From Parachlamydiales bacterium (lineage in GTDB: Bacteria; Chlamydiota; Chlamydiia; Chlamydiales; JAEMRK01), in contig JAEMRK010000001.1 of NCBI GenBank assembly GCA_016463375.1, forward strand, positions 17,604 to 81,603: 64,000 nt of DNA, read 5' to 3'. The notes beneath the pieces are model-generated. The model made no database searches. It was not told the origin of the DNA and saw only the letters and a list, made by a program, of their open reading frames with translations. Shown here piece by piece: positions 43,976 through 49,888 of this stretch; the first letter of the stretch is position 1, and each line of letters opens with the position of its first letter. Position numbers and translations under genes: made by a program.

Positions 43976-44644
43976 ATGCATTTTAAGGCCATTCTTTTTG
44001 ATTTAGATCGAACCCTTGCCTATGATCACCACTTAGAGCTCGATACATTTCGTTTATTAGTCCAAAAATTTAATATTCCAGCAAGCGATGCTGATCTTTT
44101 AATCGTACTCAATCAATTCCGTTCAGGCCAGTTGCCTTTAAATTCTGCTCTTGGCCAGGCTTTTACCAAATGGGGTTTGAGTCAACAAGAAAGCCAAGAA
44201 GCCGCTTTGTTATTTAGAAAACAAGTCTTAACAGAAGCTCACGAACGCGTCGAAGCTGTTGAGGGTTTTAATGAAGTGATATCCGAGGTAGAAAAAAGAA
44301 AAATACCATATGCCATGCTCACTAACGGATGGAAAGAACTTCAAGATACAAAAGCGTCCATAATTGGTTTTAAAAAAGAAGTTCTATCGTCTGAAGAACT
44401 TAAGGCCTGGAAACCAGACATTCAACTTTTTTCTAAAGCATTGCAACGTTTGAAATTCAACGCCAACGATACGGTGTATGTTGGCGACTCCCCCGAATCA
44501 GATATGGTTGGAGCTAAAGAAGCTGGAATGCAAACTATTTGGGCAAATTTTCAACATCAGCAATATCCATCTGGTATCGTTAAACCAGATGCTATCATTG
44601 AAAAATTTACAGACCTTATTACTTTGCTGCCTTTGCCATCCTAG
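43976..44644 (+). CDS. HAD-superfamily hydrolase
   Basis: Motif I LFDLDRTL and motif IV VGDSPESDMVGAKEAGM. Confidence 0.8.
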   Translation: MHFKAILFDLDRTLAYDHHLELDTFRLLVQKFNIPASDADLLIVLNQFRSGQLPLNSALGQAFTKWGLSQQESQEAALLFRKQVLTEAHERVEAVEGFNEVISEVEKRKIPYAMLTNGWKELQDTKASIIGFKKEVLSSEELKAWKPDIQLFSKALQRLKFNANDTVYVGDSPESDMVGAKEAGMQTIWANFQHQQYPSGIVKPDAIIEKFTDLITLLPLPS

Positions 44645-46010
44645 AAGGATTTGTGTTAACTGGCCATAATGGTAGCAATATCAAAGTGGCTACGATACTA
44701 CATGCTGCTATGATGACAAAATATTGATACCAACCAAACTTGTTAATAACCCAACCTAAGGGAAATCCAGCAACGGCTGCACCTAAATAAGCAAAACAAC
44801 CAGTGAAACCTGTAGCTGTAGCAGCAGCTTTTTTATGTGATAACTCAGCAGCAGCTACACCAATTAGCATTTGAGGACCAAAAACAAAAAAGCCTATTAA
44901 AAACACGAGCGCGTGATTTAGAACGACGTACTGACCAGGTGCAAAATAAAAGGCTACTACGGATCCAAAGACACCTACCATAAACAAAGCGTTTACAGGT
45001 CCTCTTTTGCCTTTAAAAATACTATCTGATCCCCAACCAGCAGCAAGGCTTCCAAAAAAACCTCCGACTTCAAAAAGAGAAACGCATGTCGATGCCATTA
45101 ACGCTTCATATCCCTTTTGTCGCATTAAGAATAAAACGCTCCAGTCGTTGATAGCTTGTCTAACTATGTATACAAAGAAATATGCTGCTGCTAACAACCA
45201 AATATATTTATTTTTTAAAATATAGCCGACTAAAATTTGTTTTACGCTCAGCTCTTTTTCAGTATCATTATGATCTTTAGTTGGATAATCATTTTTAAAT
45301 TTCTCGATACTTGGAAGCCCCAGAGATTGTGGTGTATCCCTTAAACGATTCATCAAAATGAACCCAAGACCTATACACGCAACACCGGGAACATACATAG
45401 CAGATCGCCAACCCCAGCGCATTGCACAATAAGCTGCAATAAGCGGAATAATGGCACCGCCCACATTGTGTGACGTGTTCCAAACACCCCACCAACGACC
45501 ACGCTCTTTTTGAGAATACCAATGTGTTAAAAGTCTTGCGCAACCTGGCCATCCCCATCCTTGGAACCACCCGTTTAATCCCCAGAAAAGGCTAAAAAAT
45601 ACAATGGACGATGATAAACCAAAAAAGATGTTAAGGATACCGGTTAATATAAGACCAATGCTTAAAAAATAACGAGGATTAGATCTATCGGCTAATATAC
45701 CTGATGTGAATTTGCTGATACCATAAGCTAAAGCCCATAAAGTTCCGAGCATTCCTAAATCGGCTTCATTTAAACCAAGATCTACCATTAAAGCTGGCAT
45801 AGCAAAAGTAAAGCTTTTGCGAGTGAAGTAGTAAAAAATATAACCGAAATACATCGAGTAGAAAATCCGCCAACGCCAATAACGGTACTCTTTAGCAACT
45901 TTAGCGTGGCCCTTAATTTCCGGAATAGGCGGTGCAGGTTTTAGTATTTTTATTAATCTACTCACAATAAATCTCCAATCCAGCTTCAATGGATATATTT
46001 CCGCTAACAA
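44619..46010 (-). CDS. uhpC: Hexose-phosphate transporter (organophosphate:Pi antiporter family, UhpC-like)
   Basis: MFS OPA-family pattern (YRYWRWRIFYSMYFGYIFYYFTRKS; DRSNPR). It is next to dnaE, as in Chlamydia. The start is uncertain: TTG at 46010 or GTG near 45962. Confidence 0.85.
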   Translation of the reverse strand: MLAEIYPLKLDWRFIVSRLIKILKPAPPIPEIKGHAKVAKEYRYWRWRIFYSMYFGYIFYYFTRKSFTFAMPALMVDLGLNEADLGMLGTLWALAYGISKFTSGILADRSNPRYFLSIGLILTGILNIFFGLSSSIVFFSLFWGLNGWFQGWGWPGCARLLTHWYSQKERGRWWGVWNTSHNVGGAIIPLIAAYCAMRWGWRSAMYVPGVACIGLGFILMNRLRDTPQSLGLPSIEKFKNDYPTKDHNDTEKELSVKQILVGYILKNKYIWLLAAAYFFVYIVRQAINDWSVLFLMRQKGYEALMASTCVSLFEVGGFFGSLAAGWGSDSIFKGKRGPVNALFMVGVFGSVVAFYFAPGQYVVLNHALVFLIGFFVFGPQMLIGVAAAELSHKKAAATATGFTGCFAYLGAAVAGFPLGWVINKFGWYQYFVIIAACSIVATLILLPLWPVNTNPSRMAKAAK

Positions 46011-46165
46011 TCATAAATTCTATTCGAATCAGCAGCTCAGGCAGATCTCAGCTAGGAATAAAAGTGAAATCTTGAGTCAATCTAGATTTAAACAGAAAAT
46101 TTTCCTCTAGATTTAATGTGCAAAAAAATTTGCCAATTTCTGCAAAATAACCCAATCTCTATATG

Positions 46166-46193
46166 TTGACAAGAAAAGCTTTTGAATTATTAA
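46166..46193 (+). promoter_or_regulatory. Putative sigma-70-type promoter
   Basis: TTGACA (46166-46171), a 16-nt spacer, then TATTAA (46188-46193), upstream of the FHA-like gene. Confidence 0.35.
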
Positions 46194-46259
46194 CTCAGCT
46201 AACGTAATGTGTTAGTAAAAACTCTATTTTTAGCCTTTCATCACTGTGGGATAACGGAT

Positions 46260-48497
46260 ATGATTAAACTGACATTAAATCCTTACTTAGAAGCTACACC
46301 TTTTTCAACATCTAAGAAAAAAGTTTTAATAGGCTCTGATGGAAACGTTGATTTAGCAATTGGAACTGACGCTGCATTTTTAAAAGAACCCATAGAAATC
46401 GTGCAAAGTGATGGTCAATATTTTTTACAAGTTAACGATTTTGATTCTTCAATTACGCTTAACGGTCAACCAGTTTTATCCAAAGAAAAAATCATAAGTG
46501 GCGATAGACTCTATATAGGTAATGCAGAATTGCTATTTGAGCAAGTCGACGCTCAAGAGGATTTATCTGACTGGCAACATTTGAGCGCTTATTTTGATCA
46601 CTCTAAGGACGATGAAAAAATTCATTTGAGTGATGCTGAAATTGACGAATTACTCAAACAATTAGAGGATATTCAACAACATGATGAATCACCAGTCTCT
46701 AAACAAGAATTGAATAAAGAAAGACAAAAGCTAATTGTTGACGATGCTGTTGATTCTTTAACTCCTTTAAAAACATCAAATTCATTATTTCCCAAAGGCA
46801 TCTTTTTTTTATTTCTCTTACTATTTTGCTTAAGCTCAGCATCATATTTATTTATTAAAAGAGAAAACGTAAAAAATGAATTAGATGCAGCTCGTGGTAT
46901 TGCAGATCTTAGCATGGTATTAACCCATGCAAAATTGCAGCATGTTCAAGTTTTTGGTCCTATGAATCAACAAATCATGGAACAACACATTAATGCTGTG
47001 CTATCTCCGGCTTATAGACACTTGTCATCCTTGACAAATCTAGGCCATCTAAAAAATTCTGAATACGATTTGCGTTTAATTTCAACTAATGACATGTCTC
47101 ACACAGTCTTAGTGGCAATACCCAAAGAAACTCTATTTCAAAGAATTATTCCTAAAAGTGCATTTATTATAGATTCTAAGACGATGGAAGTTTGCAGAAC
47201 TGACGATACATCTCAATGGGAATTGTTATTGAATGGTAAAGAAACACTAGATGAATACTCACCTGGTGATATTGAAAACCTTATAAAAGCTGCAGAGAGA
47301 CTTCCATTAACTTTTTTAGATGGCGGTCGTTTAGAAAATGGCTTTGCTCCACCTAATACATCAGATCACTCTCAATTGGAGCATCATATTTACAACGCCC
47401 CTAGATACTATATGTTTACAAAACCTCTTCTAGAACAAGCGATTGCACTTAATAAATCTCCAAACCATGAGCTGCATGAAGTCGCATCTCTTTTACATAT
47501 GATCAACGGCTATTCATCCCTGCCTAATTTAATTGTCTATTCACCAGAGGGTTTTGAAGGTGTTTATCAAGAATTAAAGAAATATGCCCCACAACACCAT
47601 TTTTTATTGGCTGATGTTCATTTAGAACCAAAATCGGGAATAATACTCGGCGCAACAATTGCTAACGAATCAGAGTTCGAAGTCGCTTCGGAAGAACCAA
47701 AAAGCCGTATTAGCATCGTATCAGAAGCTGTTCCTACATTTAAACCAGCTGAAATCGATTATGATTCTGCTGTTGGGTTAATTGAATCAAACGACCTATT
47801 AAATGAAGAAGACGCTTTAAGCCAACGCATTGAACAATTATCAAGCCTTTTAAATAACCGTCAGCAGTTATGGGAAAATCTCTTAAGTGCAGAAAAAAGC
47901 TATTGCAGCATTCCAGAACTAGCTTTAAGAAATTCTTTGAGAGAATTTCCTTTAATTATAGGCCAAGAGAATAAAGAGCGGTTTGAAAGGTACATTGAAA
48001 AAAAACTTTTTTTGATAGCGGAAGAAAACACTAATTTTAAACCACAAGAAGAAAAGCTTCTTTTACAACATGATCTGCATGAAATTTTAACCGATACGCT
48101 TATTACAAGAAATAATTGTTATGGCATTAGACAGGAGATGGAAACATATATCGAACGGCTTAATCATTTTGTATATGACCTAACACGTTCTAAAGAAGAA
48201 GGCTGCTTCATAAATAATCGTCAGTTTCATCAACTACTACTCAACAATACTCGTCAAAATTTAAAAATGGCAAAAAAATTAAAACAACATTTGTTCCAAA
48301 CAACTGAAACTGTTTTATCAATATGTCAAGAACAAGAAGAAATGGCTCAAGAACAGCTTGAAGCTGTTGAAGGCAACCGCGAATATACTCCGAATGACCT
48401 ACAAAATTTAGAAAAACGCTGGCATAATCTAACAGCTACAGGAATGATTGTAGATTCTCTTCACCAGATGGAAGAAAAGTTAGATCATACACGTTAA
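46260..48497 (+). CDS. Bitopic membrane protein with an N-terminal degenerate FHA-like domain (YscD-like topology)
   Basis: VLIGSDGNVDLAIG...ITLNGQPV...ISGDRLYIGNAELLFE fits the FHA beta-sandwich pattern but lacks the R/S/H phosphopeptide-binding residues. It has a single TM helix (GIFFLFLLLFCLSSASYLFI) near aa 190-210, then ~540 aa with a coiled-coil-rich C-terminus. The start is set at the ATG at 46260. Confidence 0.55.
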   Translation: MIKLTLNPYLEATPFSTSKKKVLIGSDGNVDLAIGTDAAFLKEPIEIVQSDGQYFLQVNDFDSSITLNGQPVLSKEKIISGDRLYIGNAELLFEQVDAQEDLSDWQHLSAYFDHSKDDEKIHLSDAEIDELLKQLEDIQQHDESPVSKQELNKERQKLIVDDAVDSLTPLKTSNSLFPKGIFFLFLLLFCLSSASYLFIKRENVKNELDAARGIADLSMVLTHAKLQHVQVFGPMNQQIMEQHINAVLSPAYRHLSSLTNLGHLKNSEYDLRLISTNDMSHTVLVAIPKETLFQRIIPKSAFIIDSKTMEVCRTDDTSQWELLLNGKETLDEYSPGDIENLIKAAERLPLTFLDGGRLENGFAPPNTSDHSQLEHHIYNAPRYYMFTKPLLEQAIALNKSPNHELHEVASLLHMINGYSSLPNLIVYSPEGFEGVYQELKKYAPQHHFLLADVHLEPKSGIILGATIANESEFEVASEEPKSRISIVSEAVPTFKPAEIDYDSAVGLIESNDLLNEEDALSQRIEQLSSLLNNRQQLWENLLSAEKSYCSIPELALRNSLREFPLIIGQENKERFERYIEKKLFLIAEENTNFKPQEEKLLLQHDLHEILTDTLITRNNCYGIRQEMETYIERLNHFVYDLTRSKEEGCFINNRQFHQLLLNNTRQNLKMAKKLKQHLFQTTETVLSICQEQEEMAQEQLEAVEGNREYTPNDLQNLEKRWHNLTATGMIVDSLHQMEEKLDHTR

Positions 48498-48535
48498 ATA
48501 TTATTTTGATTGAGCGTACCGAATAAAGCTTTGAG

Positions 48536-48561
48536 CCTTTACTCTTAAGTAAAGGTCTTTT
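48536..48561 (+). terminator. Rho-independent terminator
   Basis: 8-bp stem CCTTTACT/AGTAAAGG, loop CTTA, followed by TCTTTTAT. Confidence 0.6.
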
Positions 48562-48601
48562 ATAATTTAGCCATTTACTTACCTGAAGTTAATGGATAAA
48601 T

Positions 48602-49888
48602 ATGGAATTTTCCCACCCTAAAGGCACATATGATCTCATTCCTTTCGCCTCTGATCCAAAGGATCGATGGCGCTCGAGTTATTTGTGGCATCATGTGGAA
48701 AAATTCATTAAAGATTGTTGCGCTCTTTATGGTGTTAAAGAAATTAGAACACCTATTTTTGAAAAAAAAGAATTATTTTGTCGTAGCGTTGGTCAAGATA
48801 CCGACATCGTTTCTAAAGAGATGTATGAATTTCAAGATCGCGCCGGACGCGATATGGTTTTGCGTCCTGAAGGTACCGCTGCTGTTTCAAGAGCTTATGT
48901 CGAAGAAAAACTCTACATCTCAAATCCCATTCAAAAACTTTATTACATAGGACCTATGTTTCGCTATGAACGCCCTCAATCGGGTCGCTATCGCCAACAT
49001 ATTCAATTTGGTGCGGAATTTATAGGATCCAATGCTGCTGAAGTCGACGTGGAAGCAATAGATCTTCTTTACACTCTTTATTCAAATTTAGGCTTAAAAG
49101 GTCTTAAAGTTCAAATTAACAGCGTTGGAGATGCCAAAGCACGTTCCGAATTTCGCCAAGCGTTAAAAGATTATCTAGCGCCGTTTGCACAAAACTTATC
49201 TGCTGATAGCCAAACACGCTTAGAAAAAAATCCTCTACGCATTCTAGATTCTAAGGATTTAAACGATCAGAAGATTTTAGAAAATGCTCCAGCGCTTGAA
49301 AATTACTTGTCAGCTGAATGTAAAGAACATTTTGCGCGCGTATTATTTTTGTTAAAACAACTTAATATCCCTTACATTATCAATCCAAAACTTGTCAGAG
49401 GGTTAGACTACTACCACCGCACAGTTTTTGAAATCACTGCTGGTGAGCTTGGAGCTCAAAACAGTGTTGCGGGTGGTGGTCGTTATGATGGTTTAATTAA
49501 AACACTCGGGGGCCCTGATTTACCAGCAGTCGGTTTTGCAACTGGTCTTGAAAGAGTGATACAAACATTGATTGCGCAAAATGCCCCTATACCTAACAAA
49601 CCTACAACCGATCTCTTCTTAATTGGGATGGGCGATATCGCCAAAGAGACTTGCTTCTTGTTGATGAAAGAACTTCGCACAGCAAATATTAGTGTAGAGA
49701 TGGACTTTTCTTCGAAAAAGATCAAAGATCTTTTTCGCATGGCTGACCAATTAGGTGCTAAATACACAGCAGTAATTGGTGATAATGAACTGTTAAATAA
49801 AAAAATAGCAATTAAAGATATGGCTTCACGTACTGAGACTACTGTACCTCTGGATCAAGTTGTTCATTTTTTTCACAAAGCGCAATAG
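48602..49888 (+). CDS. hisS: Histidyl-tRNA synthetase
   Basis: Class II motifs (LRPEGTA; FRYERPQSGRYRQH; GGGRYDGL). Confidence 0.95.
   Translation: MEFSHPKGTYDLIPFASDPKDRWRSSYLWHHVEKFIKDCCALYGVKEIRTPIFEKKELFCRSVGQDTDIVSKEMYEFQDRAGRDMVLRPEGTAAVSRAYVEEKLYISNPIQKLYYIGPMFRYERPQSGRYRQHIQFGAEFIGSNAAEVDVEAIDLLYTLYSNLGLKGLKVQINSVGDAKARSEFRQALKDYLAPFAQNLSADSQTRLEKNPLRILDSKDLNDQKILENAPALENYLSAECKEHFARVLFLLKQLNIPYIINPKLVRGLDYYHRTVFEITAGELGAQNSVAGGGRYDGLIKTLGGPDLPAVGFATGLERVIQTLIAQNAPIPNKPTTDLFLIGMGDIAKETCFLLMKELRTANISVEMDFSSKKIKDLFRMADQLGAKYTAVIGDNELLNKKIAIKDMASRTETTVPLDQVVHFFHKAQ

Follow-up and report, generated by a model that had tools for sequence, protein, structure and literature searches.

The complete gene at 46260..48497 on the + strand (745 codons plus stop) of the 64-kb window, the whole stretch of DNA analyzed here, encodes an FHA-like, single-pass membrane protein, hereafter X. 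We found X to be a member of a large family of bitopic inner-membrane proteins that extends across Chlamydiota and occupies a fixed position in a housekeeping gene block. Members of this family have so far carried only the name 'hypothetical protein', and the family can now be defined by its transmembrane (TM) helix, a core with invariant residues and a slot between uhpC and hisS. As for function, we tentatively regard X as a bitopic scaffold or adaptor of the envelope that occurs throughout the lineage, is embedded among housekeeping genes and has an FHA-like module in the cytoplasm that works independently of phosphorylation, an explanation whose chances we put somewhat below even.

The product of the gene is an exact match to the NCBI entry 'hypothetical protein JHC93_00375 [Parachlamydiales bacterium]', which derives from a MAG. 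The mechanical ORF list opens further upstream, at GTG 46209; the ATG at 46260 was favored as the start because orthologs share the same initial MIKLT. Within its family, the window's X is a divergent member, with ~25% identity to the others, no family His44 or DPF loop, and a 5-residue deletion at the NWSDP motif. The extent of the family could be seen only by exhaustive profile search together with a genome scan. At E<1e-3, the family profile recovered 679 cluster representatives; at E<1e-30 it recovered 338, so that the family comprises at least this number of clusters at 50% identity. Word-indexed protein searches found 3, 2 and 1 matches, also when the query was an alignment of 35 sequences or of the core alone. 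Domain fusions were sought in the ten longest members, in which only FHA, PF16697 (Yop-YscD_cpl, the cytoplasmic domain of YscD) and isolated sub-threshold matches were detected. A literature search gave nothing relevant on a chlamydial FHA membrane protein, Cpn0664 or the CT543/CT544 adjacency; CT544 is uhpC in the literature.

The N-terminal domain (aa 1-95, 46260..46544) was predicted by AlphaFold to be a confident beta-sandwich (pLDDT ~90). Almost all of its best 50 Foldseek matches were solved FHA domains (E 3.5e-5 to 1e-3, target TM 0.6-0.82), including those of FhaA, GarA/OdhI, Ki67, CT664 (3gqs) and YscD-N (4a0e, 4d9v), and the family profile matched the FHA domain of FhaA (E 0.003). 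The Pfam FHA family, PF00498, scored 15.5 bits (E 0.024) on the window's X, below its GA of 20.7, which was exceeded by some orthologs (e.g., 22.8 and 21.5 bits), and matched 14/35 orthologs at E<=0.01. On its modeled structure, the N-domain is a member of the FHA superfamily at the level of the fold.

Phosphothreonine is contacted in FHA domains by the GR, SxxH and NG motifs (PMC3162421), and these positions were examined in an alignment of X with FhaA and by column counts in 120 family sequences. As in canonical FHA domains (PF00498), the family has an 11-stranded beta-sandwich, the Gly of GR and, in most members (104/120), the His of SxxH at position 44. Unlike in these domains, the Arg of GR is never dominant, position 26 being Ser, Ala, Lys or Asn; the Ser of SxxH is replaced; and the NG loop has in most members given way to a near-invariant apical loop, N-A-N-D-P-F. 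The window's X has Ser26, Pro44 and NDFDSS at these sites. Judged from its residues, the N-domain is not a canonical phosphothreonine-binding FHA domain, and the preliminary description, which had read the N-terminus as an FHA fold devoid of phosphothreonine-binding residues, is borne out by the model, the Foldseek matches and the column counts. A few family members do without this part altogether (L006 and L025, and also P0094 and P0106, matched by the profile only from ~position 170-214), in line with the periplasmic part being the core of the protein.

The N-domain is followed by an acidic linker (aa 96-180, 46545..46799) that is for the most part disordered, varies in length and has low conservation and occupancy. 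AlphaFold gave it pLDDT <50 at aa 100-122 and 141-173, and it carries one amphipathic helix (aa 125-140), with the family motif DIxxLxxEVExL. As a sign of an FHA-linker interaction in the family, an association between loss of the N-A-N-D-P-F loop and loss of the linker motif KDxYLxExDDE was sought and none was found (44/109 vs 4/11).

A single TM helix (IFFLFLLLFCLSSASYLFI; aa 181-199, 46800..46856) was assigned from hydropathy, flank charges and the model, slightly N-terminal of the one helix proposed earlier at aa 190-210. Hydropathy showed one ~19-residue peak in 109/120 family members. The charges flanking it favor an N-in orientation in the family (net +1.5 upstream vs -1.0 downstream); the window's X itself has more Lys/Arg on the C-terminal side (three) than on the N-terminal side (one). 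In the AlphaFold model, the segment sits inside a continuous helix, 177-226. The family profile also gave matches to VAMP2 (SNARE plus TM, E 0.09-0.22), which were weak, insignificant and ascribed to TM-helix composition. Some 546 aa lie C-terminal of the TM helix, in agreement with the large domain of ~540 aa expected there.

The best-conserved part of the protein is the ~270-aa alpha/beta core (aa 200-470, 46857..47669), presumed to be periplasmic. Seven positions, D216, R272, P288, M309, N379, R382 and Y383, are invariant across 120 family sequences that are otherwise 25-50% identical in this region, and all of them are kept in the window's X; the signature motif IYNAPRYY (aa 377-384, 47388..47411) is invariant in the 35-sequence alignment. 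The core was modeled with pLDDT 88.7 and pTM 0.88. Foldseek with this model found no fold match in the PDB (best E 0.25, query TM 0.17) or in the BFVD viral library, a sequence profile search of the PDB gave 0 matches at E<=10, and no Pfam or NCBIfam family covers the region. We therefore refer to an orphan fold, meaning one with no match in PDB or BFVD; the best-conserved domain of the family has neither a curated family nor a structural relative in the PDB. A type IV pilin match (4d40, E 0.25, probability 0.35, rmsd 8.4) and recurrent matches to adenylation-domain fragments (E ~1) were judged to be noise. The ring-building or other defined periplasmic fold that the preliminary description had proposed to look for did not emerge: none of the PDB matches listed for the model is a T3SS basal-body or other ring-building-motif protein, and an hhalign comparison with YscD aligned only the FHA region. 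Instead of a binding surface, the invariant D, R, N and Y residues might just as well indicate an active site.

Downstream of the core, a disordered and poorly conserved spacer (aa 471-513, 47670..47798; pLDDT <50 at aa 477-511, occupancy 0.44-0.53) leads to a moderately conserved C-terminal region (aa 514-745, 47799..48494). AlphaFold places long helices here (514-549, 569-602, 621-646 and 654-704; pLDDT 40-88), and the family consensus is AWIxDPxExxFYLxEFDL. The C-terminus had been described as coiled-coil-rich. It is indeed predicted to be helical, but a crude heptad-periodicity score was no higher than that of shuffled sequences, and the description as coiled-coil-rich is thus not supported.

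The gene for X lies between uhpC (44619-46010, - strand; NCBIfam UhpC, 578.9 bits) and hisS (48602-49888, + strand; TIGR00442, 476 bits). By its position, the divergent intergenic region between uhpC and X (46011..46259) presumably contains the promoters of both, although promoter-like matches in it were weak and their count was not above that in shuffles. In the gap between X and hisS, a terminator-like hairpin (48535-48556) overlaps a promoter-like site (48538-48566; together 48535..48566, + strand), both by pattern match only, and because of this hairpin co-transcription of X and hisS is not established in this genome. The genome-collection scan was pattern-based, with patterns present in about half of the known members, and gave 42 loci with an X ortholog in GTDB species-representative Chlamydiota, of which 33 have uhpC divergently upstream, 24 have hisS downstream and 21 have both. 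hisS lies within 300 nt in 15 of the 24 loci, with overlap in some, and in 6/24 the two genes are <=20 nt apart or overlap. Occupied slots of the uhpC/X/hisS type were found in Parachlamydiaceae, Waddliaceae, Simkania and other Chlamydiota, and two further contigs agree. Across the 42 genomes, the conserved neighbors are dnaE, uhpC, hisS, aspS, mip and spoU, arranged as a block of dnaE-uhpC followed by X-hisS-aspS-mip on the opposite strand. That genes for aminoacyl-tRNA synthetases are syntenic with X is in itself uninformative on function.

It had been proposed that the gene is an insertion into conserved synteny. This view does not hold, since the MAG in which the window lies is of Parachlamydiales and not of Chlamydiaceae, and since orthologs fill the same slot across environmental chlamydiae. 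X is apparently absent from the uhpC-hisS slot of Chlamydiaceae. If Chlamydiaceae do lack it, either it was lost there or it was gained when the environmental clade arose, and X would be a candidate for an envelope component that sets the large-genome lineages associated with amoebae apart from the pathogenic Chlamydiaceae. The statement that no secretion genes adjoin X could be extended, as none occur anywhere in the 64-kb window, which contains only housekeeping and envelope-biogenesis genes. Among the latter, in the wider neighborhood of X, are lnt-lpxC-fabZ-lpxA, lpxI, uppS and genes for PBP5-like and BamD-like proteins. X is probably expressed constitutively and involved in basic envelope biology rather than in an accessory virulence or secretion module; its constitutive expression is suggested by the operon-like arrangement with hisS and aspS.

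In the explanation that we favor, X would act as a transmembrane scaffold or adaptor, with its FHA end in the cytoplasm and the remaining ~546 residues in the periplasm. The orphan periplasmic domain may bind a conserved envelope partner or ligand via its invariant surface, and the helical tail could extend or oligomerize in the periplasm. By analogy with SctD-type FHA folds, the FHA-like module may recruit a cytoplasmic protein without phosphorylation.

Several other readings were considered. X could be a transmembrane sensor, in which a periplasmic ligand or envelope signal is passed through the TM helix to an FHA-like hold on a cytoplasmic effector, possibly with a link to UhpC. The invariant polar/aromatic cluster of the periplasmic domain would fit a ligand pocket, and a long helix that continues through the membrane (177-226) is typical of signaling receptors. 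However, Foldseek showed no likeness to Cache, PAS, CHASE or other sensor folds, the sole candidate for an output is a degenerate FHA domain that some members lack, and 85 aa of disordered linker between this domain and the TM helix are ill suited to conformational signaling. The divergent arrangement with uhpC, kept in 33/42 genomes, might also be quoted in support, but it is not specific evidence for a sensor, because the whole gene block is syntenic. We consider a sensor unlikely.

Alternatively, X might be a scaffold of envelope growth or division, analogous to the mycobacterial FhaA or FipA (FhaB). In its favor, chlamydiae have no FtsZ and probably use divisome parts that are yet to be identified, and envelope genes are plentiful in the wider neighborhood. 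FhaA (Rv0020c) and FipA/FhaB (Rv0019c) are the best matches of the N-domain (sequence E 0.003, fold E 3.5e-5, target TM 0.7-0.82), with FhaA leading in both sequence and fold, and the mycobacterial FHA scaffolds resemble X in concept, combining an FHA module, a long disordered linker and an envelope-associated function. Yet these proteins work via canonical phosphothreonine binding, and the Arg, Ser and Asn by which FhaA binds phosphothreonine are replaced in X. In addition, FhaA has neither a TM helix nor comparable C-terminal domains, and identity is ~15%. The neighborhood is ordinary chlamydial synteny with no dedicated operon, and Chlamydiaceae, in whose uhpC-hisS slot X is apparently absent, use the same division mechanism. 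A role of this kind is rather improbable.

X could also be a membrane-anchored periplasmic enzyme, with the invariant D, R, N and Y as its active site and the FHA-like part as a regulatory or localizing appendage. Such an enzyme would be expected to show a few polar residues that are strictly invariant in an otherwise divergent domain, as seen here, and the core is retained in FHA-less members. On the other hand, the residues usual in hydrolase or transferase sites (His, Cys, Lys, Glu or Ser) are not among the invariant ones, and no enzyme fold was matched, the adenylation-domain fragments being insignificant. We give this possibility little credence. Similarly slim are the chances of a bolder proposal, that the family forms the membrane-spanning core of a Chlamydiota-specific envelope machine, an SctD-like oligomeric scaffold with a new periplasmic fold that would work independently of T3SS, e.g., as a trans-envelope tether or as part of the FtsZ-less growth/division apparatus of environmental chlamydiae, and that would have disappeared from the reduced Chlamydiaceae or given way to something else there.

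The preliminary description had likened X to YscD/EscD, which raises the question of whether it is an orphan inner-ring protein of the SctD type (YscD/EscD/CdsD) that serves a secretion system, or else a ring scaffold paralogous to such proteins. The SctD proteins (YscD, EscD, PrgH, MxiG and the chlamydial CdsD/CT664) assemble as a 24-mer inner-membrane ring around SctJ. They share with X the order of parts, i.e., a cytoplasmic FHA fold at the N-terminus whose phosphothreonine pocket is not functional, a single TM helix and, C-terminal of it, a large part in the periplasm, and structures of YscD-N and of the CT664 FHA domain were among the Foldseek matches noted above. SctD FHA folds are in fact the precedent for phospho-independence (PMC3162421). 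PF16697 matched 19/35 orthologs at E<=0.01 (best E 4.9e-8), but these matches are weak, the listed ortholog scores of 19.5-27.4 bits lying below the gathering score of 33.2, and the window's X had none at E<=0.1. Nor is the N-domain specifically near SctD: it is no closer to it than to generic FHA domains, and FhaA, GarA and Ki67 outscored SctD-N in Foldseek, with the mycobacterial FhaA and GarA as best matches.

Beyond the membrane, the likeness ends. The periplasmic part of SctD consists of three ring-building (alpha-beta-beta-alpha-beta) modules, whereas X has its orphan ~270-aa alpha/beta domain and ~230 aa of helices, and among the matches listed for the model of this part there was no PrgH, YscD, EscD or ring-building-motif structure. 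There was no profile similarity outside the FHA region, hhalign against YscD aligning aa 18-94 only, with 1.6% probability. X also differs in its acidic disordered linker of at least 85 aa before the TM helix and in its location, which is not in a T3SS cluster but fixed beside uhpC and hisS across Chlamydiota, among conserved neighbors that are all housekeeping genes. The bitopic topology is thus only superficially SctD-like; a secretion ring component is very improbable, and X gives no hint of a new secretion system. Rather, X probably adds a second, T3SS-independent example of an inner-membrane-anchored, phospho-independent FHA fold, and bears on how SctD-type proteins arose.

Finally, X is a chlamydial protein without an assigned function, with a hydrophobic segment, a helical C-terminus and the insignificant VAMP2 matches, but that it is a secreted effector or Inc-like protein inserting into the host or inclusion membrane is extremely unlikely, given that Inc proteins have a bilobed hydrophobic domain of ~40-60 residues and an N-terminal type III secretion signal, whereas X has a single 19-residue TM segment, a housekeeping operon context and, in place of a disordered signal, residues 2-6 of the conserved MIKLT start, which form strand 1 of the FHA sandwich.

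The gene at 46260-48497 (+) encodes a 745-residue protein that is identical to the NCBI entry 'MAG: hypothetical protein JHC93_00375 [Parachlamydiales bacterium]'; therefore, the window derives from an environmental chlamydia outside the Chlamydiaceae. Its reading frame is uninterrupted to 48497, with a GTG at 46209 as the start in the ORF list and a first ATG at 46260 that gives 745 codons. Because an N-terminal M-I-K/R-L-T is common to all orthologues, the start was placed at 46260, in agreement with the preliminary description. When 1.84 billion cluster representatives were searched exhaustively with a profile, 679 proteins matched at E<1e-3, of which 338 also passed E<1e-30. The family is unnamed ('hypothetical protein' in every source), and a literature search found no paper on it. 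We show here that it is a conserved bitopic membrane protein, restricted to Chlamydiota as far as sampled, and that constraint on it is strongest in an orphan alpha/beta domain located after the transmembrane (TM) helix.

A full-length AlphaFold model was built from an alignment of 120 family sequences (mean pLDDT 75.9). It contained a beta-sandwich (residues 1-95, pLDDT about 90), an acidic linker with one amphipathic helix and disorder at residues 100-122 and 141-173 (pLDDT <50), a long helix (177-226) with the sole hydrophobic segment of the protein (181-199), a compact alpha/beta domain that ends near residue 470 (pLDDT >90) and, beyond a disordered spacer (477-511), long helices up to the C-terminus, which were modelled with low to medium confidence. 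A single TM peak was found by hydropathy in 109 of the 120 sequences. Family-wide, net charge was +1.5 in the 15 residues before the TM segment and -1.0 in the 15 after it, which favours a topology with the FHA end inside and the remainder outside; since the TM flanks of the window copy lack this bias, the topology is still one that we infer. Conservation peaked at residues 200-470, where D216, R272, P288, M309, N379, R382 and Y383 were invariant (120/120) and the motif IYNAPRYY (377-384) served as a family signature.

The FHA fold of the N-terminus is clear in the predicted structure. Nearly all Foldseek matches of the model in the PDB were solved FHA domains (E from 3.5e-5, target TM up to 0.82), including FhaA/Rv0020c, GarA/OdhI, Ki67, DgcB, CT664 (3gqs) and the YscD N-terminal domain (4a0e, 4d9v), and the family profile matched the FhaA FHA domain (E 0.003). 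The Pfam FHA match of the window protein was sub-threshold (15.5 bits, gathering score 20.7). Among 35 orthologues at E<=0.01, PF00498 was detected in 14 and PF16697, the YscD cytoplasmic domain, in 19; scores of the latter among the orthologue matches listed were 19.5-27.4 bits, under the gathering score of 33.2. Phosphothreonine-binding FHA domains are defined by GR, SxxH and NG motifs (PMC3162421). In the present family, the Gly of the first motif (Gly25) was retained in 118/120 sequences and followed by Ser, Ala, Lys or Asn; the Ser of the second was absent and its His present in 104/120; and the NG loop was replaced by a distinct, nearly invariant N-A-N-D-P-F. As judged from these residues, the fold would be unable to bind phosphothreonine canonically, and most members keep their own invariant apical loop. 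The proposal of a degenerate FHA domain was thus correct.

The window copy is more degenerate in this domain than the family norm. Of the 120 sequences, it alone had Pro in place of the conserved His44 and it alone had Ser in place of the conserved Pro63, its loop reading N-D-F-D-S-S. It also carried a five-residue deletion, missing the core-conserved NWSDP after residue 237, and was approximately 25% identical to other members, compared with a mean column identity of approximately 48% among the others in the core. Some members contained no FHA domain. At two loci, L006 (6633-7700, preceded by 1 kb of stop-rich DNA) and L025 (6800-8100), one from a Waddlia-like MAG and one from a Parachlamydiaceae MAG, the ORFs opened within the acidic linker, and none of the frames upstream encoded an FHA domain; two representatives from the profile search matched the family profile only from about position 170-214. 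Therefore, the core function of the family lies in the TM helix and periplasmic part. At a further locus, L011, the FHA domain was present in another frame, reflecting a frameshift or an assembly error.

The preliminary description had also likened the topology of the protein to that of YscD/EscD proteins, but the part beyond the TM helix is not YscD-like. Residues 200-476 were modelled separately from a 42-sequence alignment (pLDDT 88.7, pTM 0.88), and this model had no Foldseek match at E<=0.001 among 350,542 PDB chains. The best fold match, a type IV pilin, was rejected (E 0.25, query TM 0.17, rmsd 8.4); adenylation-domain fragments followed at E about 1, and T3SS basal-body or other ring-building-motif structures were absent from the PDB matches listed. 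No fold match was found in a viral structure library, no PDB chain was recovered by sequence-profile search even at E<=10, and no Pfam or NCBIfam model covered the domain. An hhalign comparison of YscD from pCD1 against the family profile aligned nothing but YscD residues 18-94, the FHA fold (1.6% probability). Because nothing beyond the FHA domain was found by fold, profile or hhalign searches, the resemblance to SctD, the T3SS inner-membrane ring family, is limited to the order of parts: an FHA-like domain, one TM helix and a large periplasmic region. For the FHA domain alone, generic FHA domains are no more distant than the N-terminal domain of SctD. The protein is an FHA-fold protein anchored at the inner membrane, distinguished by a periplasmic domain without known relatives.

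We tentatively regard the protein as a transmembrane scaffold or adaptor; the descriptive part of this reading is secure and the mechanism weak. The periplasmic core would bind a conserved partner or ligand in the envelope, the tail of helices might extend or oligomerise, and the FHA-like module may engage a cytoplasmic protein in a phosphorylation-independent manner, like SctD proteins. A transmembrane sensor is unlikely. A scaffold for division or envelope growth, similar to the mycobacterial FhaA or FipA, is less probable still, and a membrane-anchored periplasmic enzyme slightly less so. A true SctD-like ring protein is very improbable, and a secreted or Inc-like protein hardly deserves consideration. 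The family is well suited to structural and interaction studies in environmental chlamydiae, and the evidence gives no pointer to a new secretion system or other surprising mechanism.

As previously described, the gene is flanked by uhpC (44619-46010, -; NCBIfam NF008661, 578.9 bits) and hisS (48602-49888, +; TIGR00442, 476 bits), with aspS, an FKBP-type mip and a SpoU methylase downstream and a HAD hydrolase and dnaE upstream. It had been viewed as an insertion into conserved synteny, but it is not one: the gene recurs at this position in environmental Chlamydiota. Two homologues from a word-indexed search showed the contig order dnaE(-), uhpC(-), FHA-like gene(+), hisS(+). Two peptide patterns, applied to a collection with a single genome for each GTDB species, detected 42 loci in Parachlamydiaceae, Waddliaceae, Simkania and unclassified Chlamydiota, a lower bound since just about half of the known family carries the patterns. 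Neighbours, identified by ORF calling and BLAST against those of the window, included divergent upstream uhpC in 33/42, same-strand downstream hisS in 24/42 and both in 21/42. Given this recurrence across sampled Chlamydiota and the large family, the gene is a long-standing resident of the housekeeping block. The lineage-specific addition is instead the HAD-family hydrolase gene (43976-44644, +; PF13419, E 1.4e-22; nearest NCBIfam a YjjG-type pyrimidine nucleotidase, under cutoff) between dnaE and uhpC, because none of 44 related loci has it there; its 3' end overlaps the convergent uhpC 3' end by 26 nt. CT544 presumably adjoins hisS (CT543); if so, the FHA-like gene would have been either lost in Chlamydiaceae or gained in the ancestor of the environmental clade. 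CT544 is uhpC (PMC2817459).

The gap to hisS was <=300 nt in 15 loci, and <=20 nt or an overlap in 6; several of the remaining loci stopped at contig edges. This fixed position adjoining, and often abutting, hisS-aspS suggests that expression may be constitutive. In the window, pattern matches at 48535-48566 (+), just upstream of hisS, comprised a terminator-like hairpin (9-bp stem, T-rich tail) overlapping a 10/12 sigma-70-like promoter match, suggesting that the two genes could be transcribed separately here, though they abut or overlap elsewhere. Several genomes had extra DNA at this junction: a GT92-family glycosyltransferase gene in L001 (12816-13691) and L018, and 2-6 kb of other genes in L028, L031, L034 and L037. 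Insertions therefore seem to recur at this junction.

Pfam was run on 42 of the 52 window ORFs of >=150 aa, and no secretion genes were detected among these 42. Except for one F-box-like protein and five ORFs without Pfam match, they represented housekeeping or envelope biogenesis, including glyA, clpP, dapF, gapA, rpoA, secY, ribosomal proteins, lnt-lpxC-fabZ-lpxA-fmt, lpxI, plsC-cmk-cdsA-uppS, a PBP5-like carboxypeptidase and a BamD-like TPR lipoprotein. The 239-aa protein with the eukaryote-type F-box-like domain (7246-7965, -; PF12937, E 2.4e-13; PF00646, E 3.6e-9) is a candidate host-directed effector by analogy with amoeba-associated bacteria. An Rsm22-like methyltransferase (58108-59043, +; PF09243, E 2.8e-74) belongs to a family that takes its name from a ribosomal protein of the mitochondrial small subunit. 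Finally, two ORFs overlap within 3001-4765 (+): 3001-4092, in which UPF0158 (E 1.7e-80) covers only residues 17-173 of 363, and 3869-4765, with DUF6624 at residues 166-295. Probably, either their start calls are too long or one of the two carries a frameshift.
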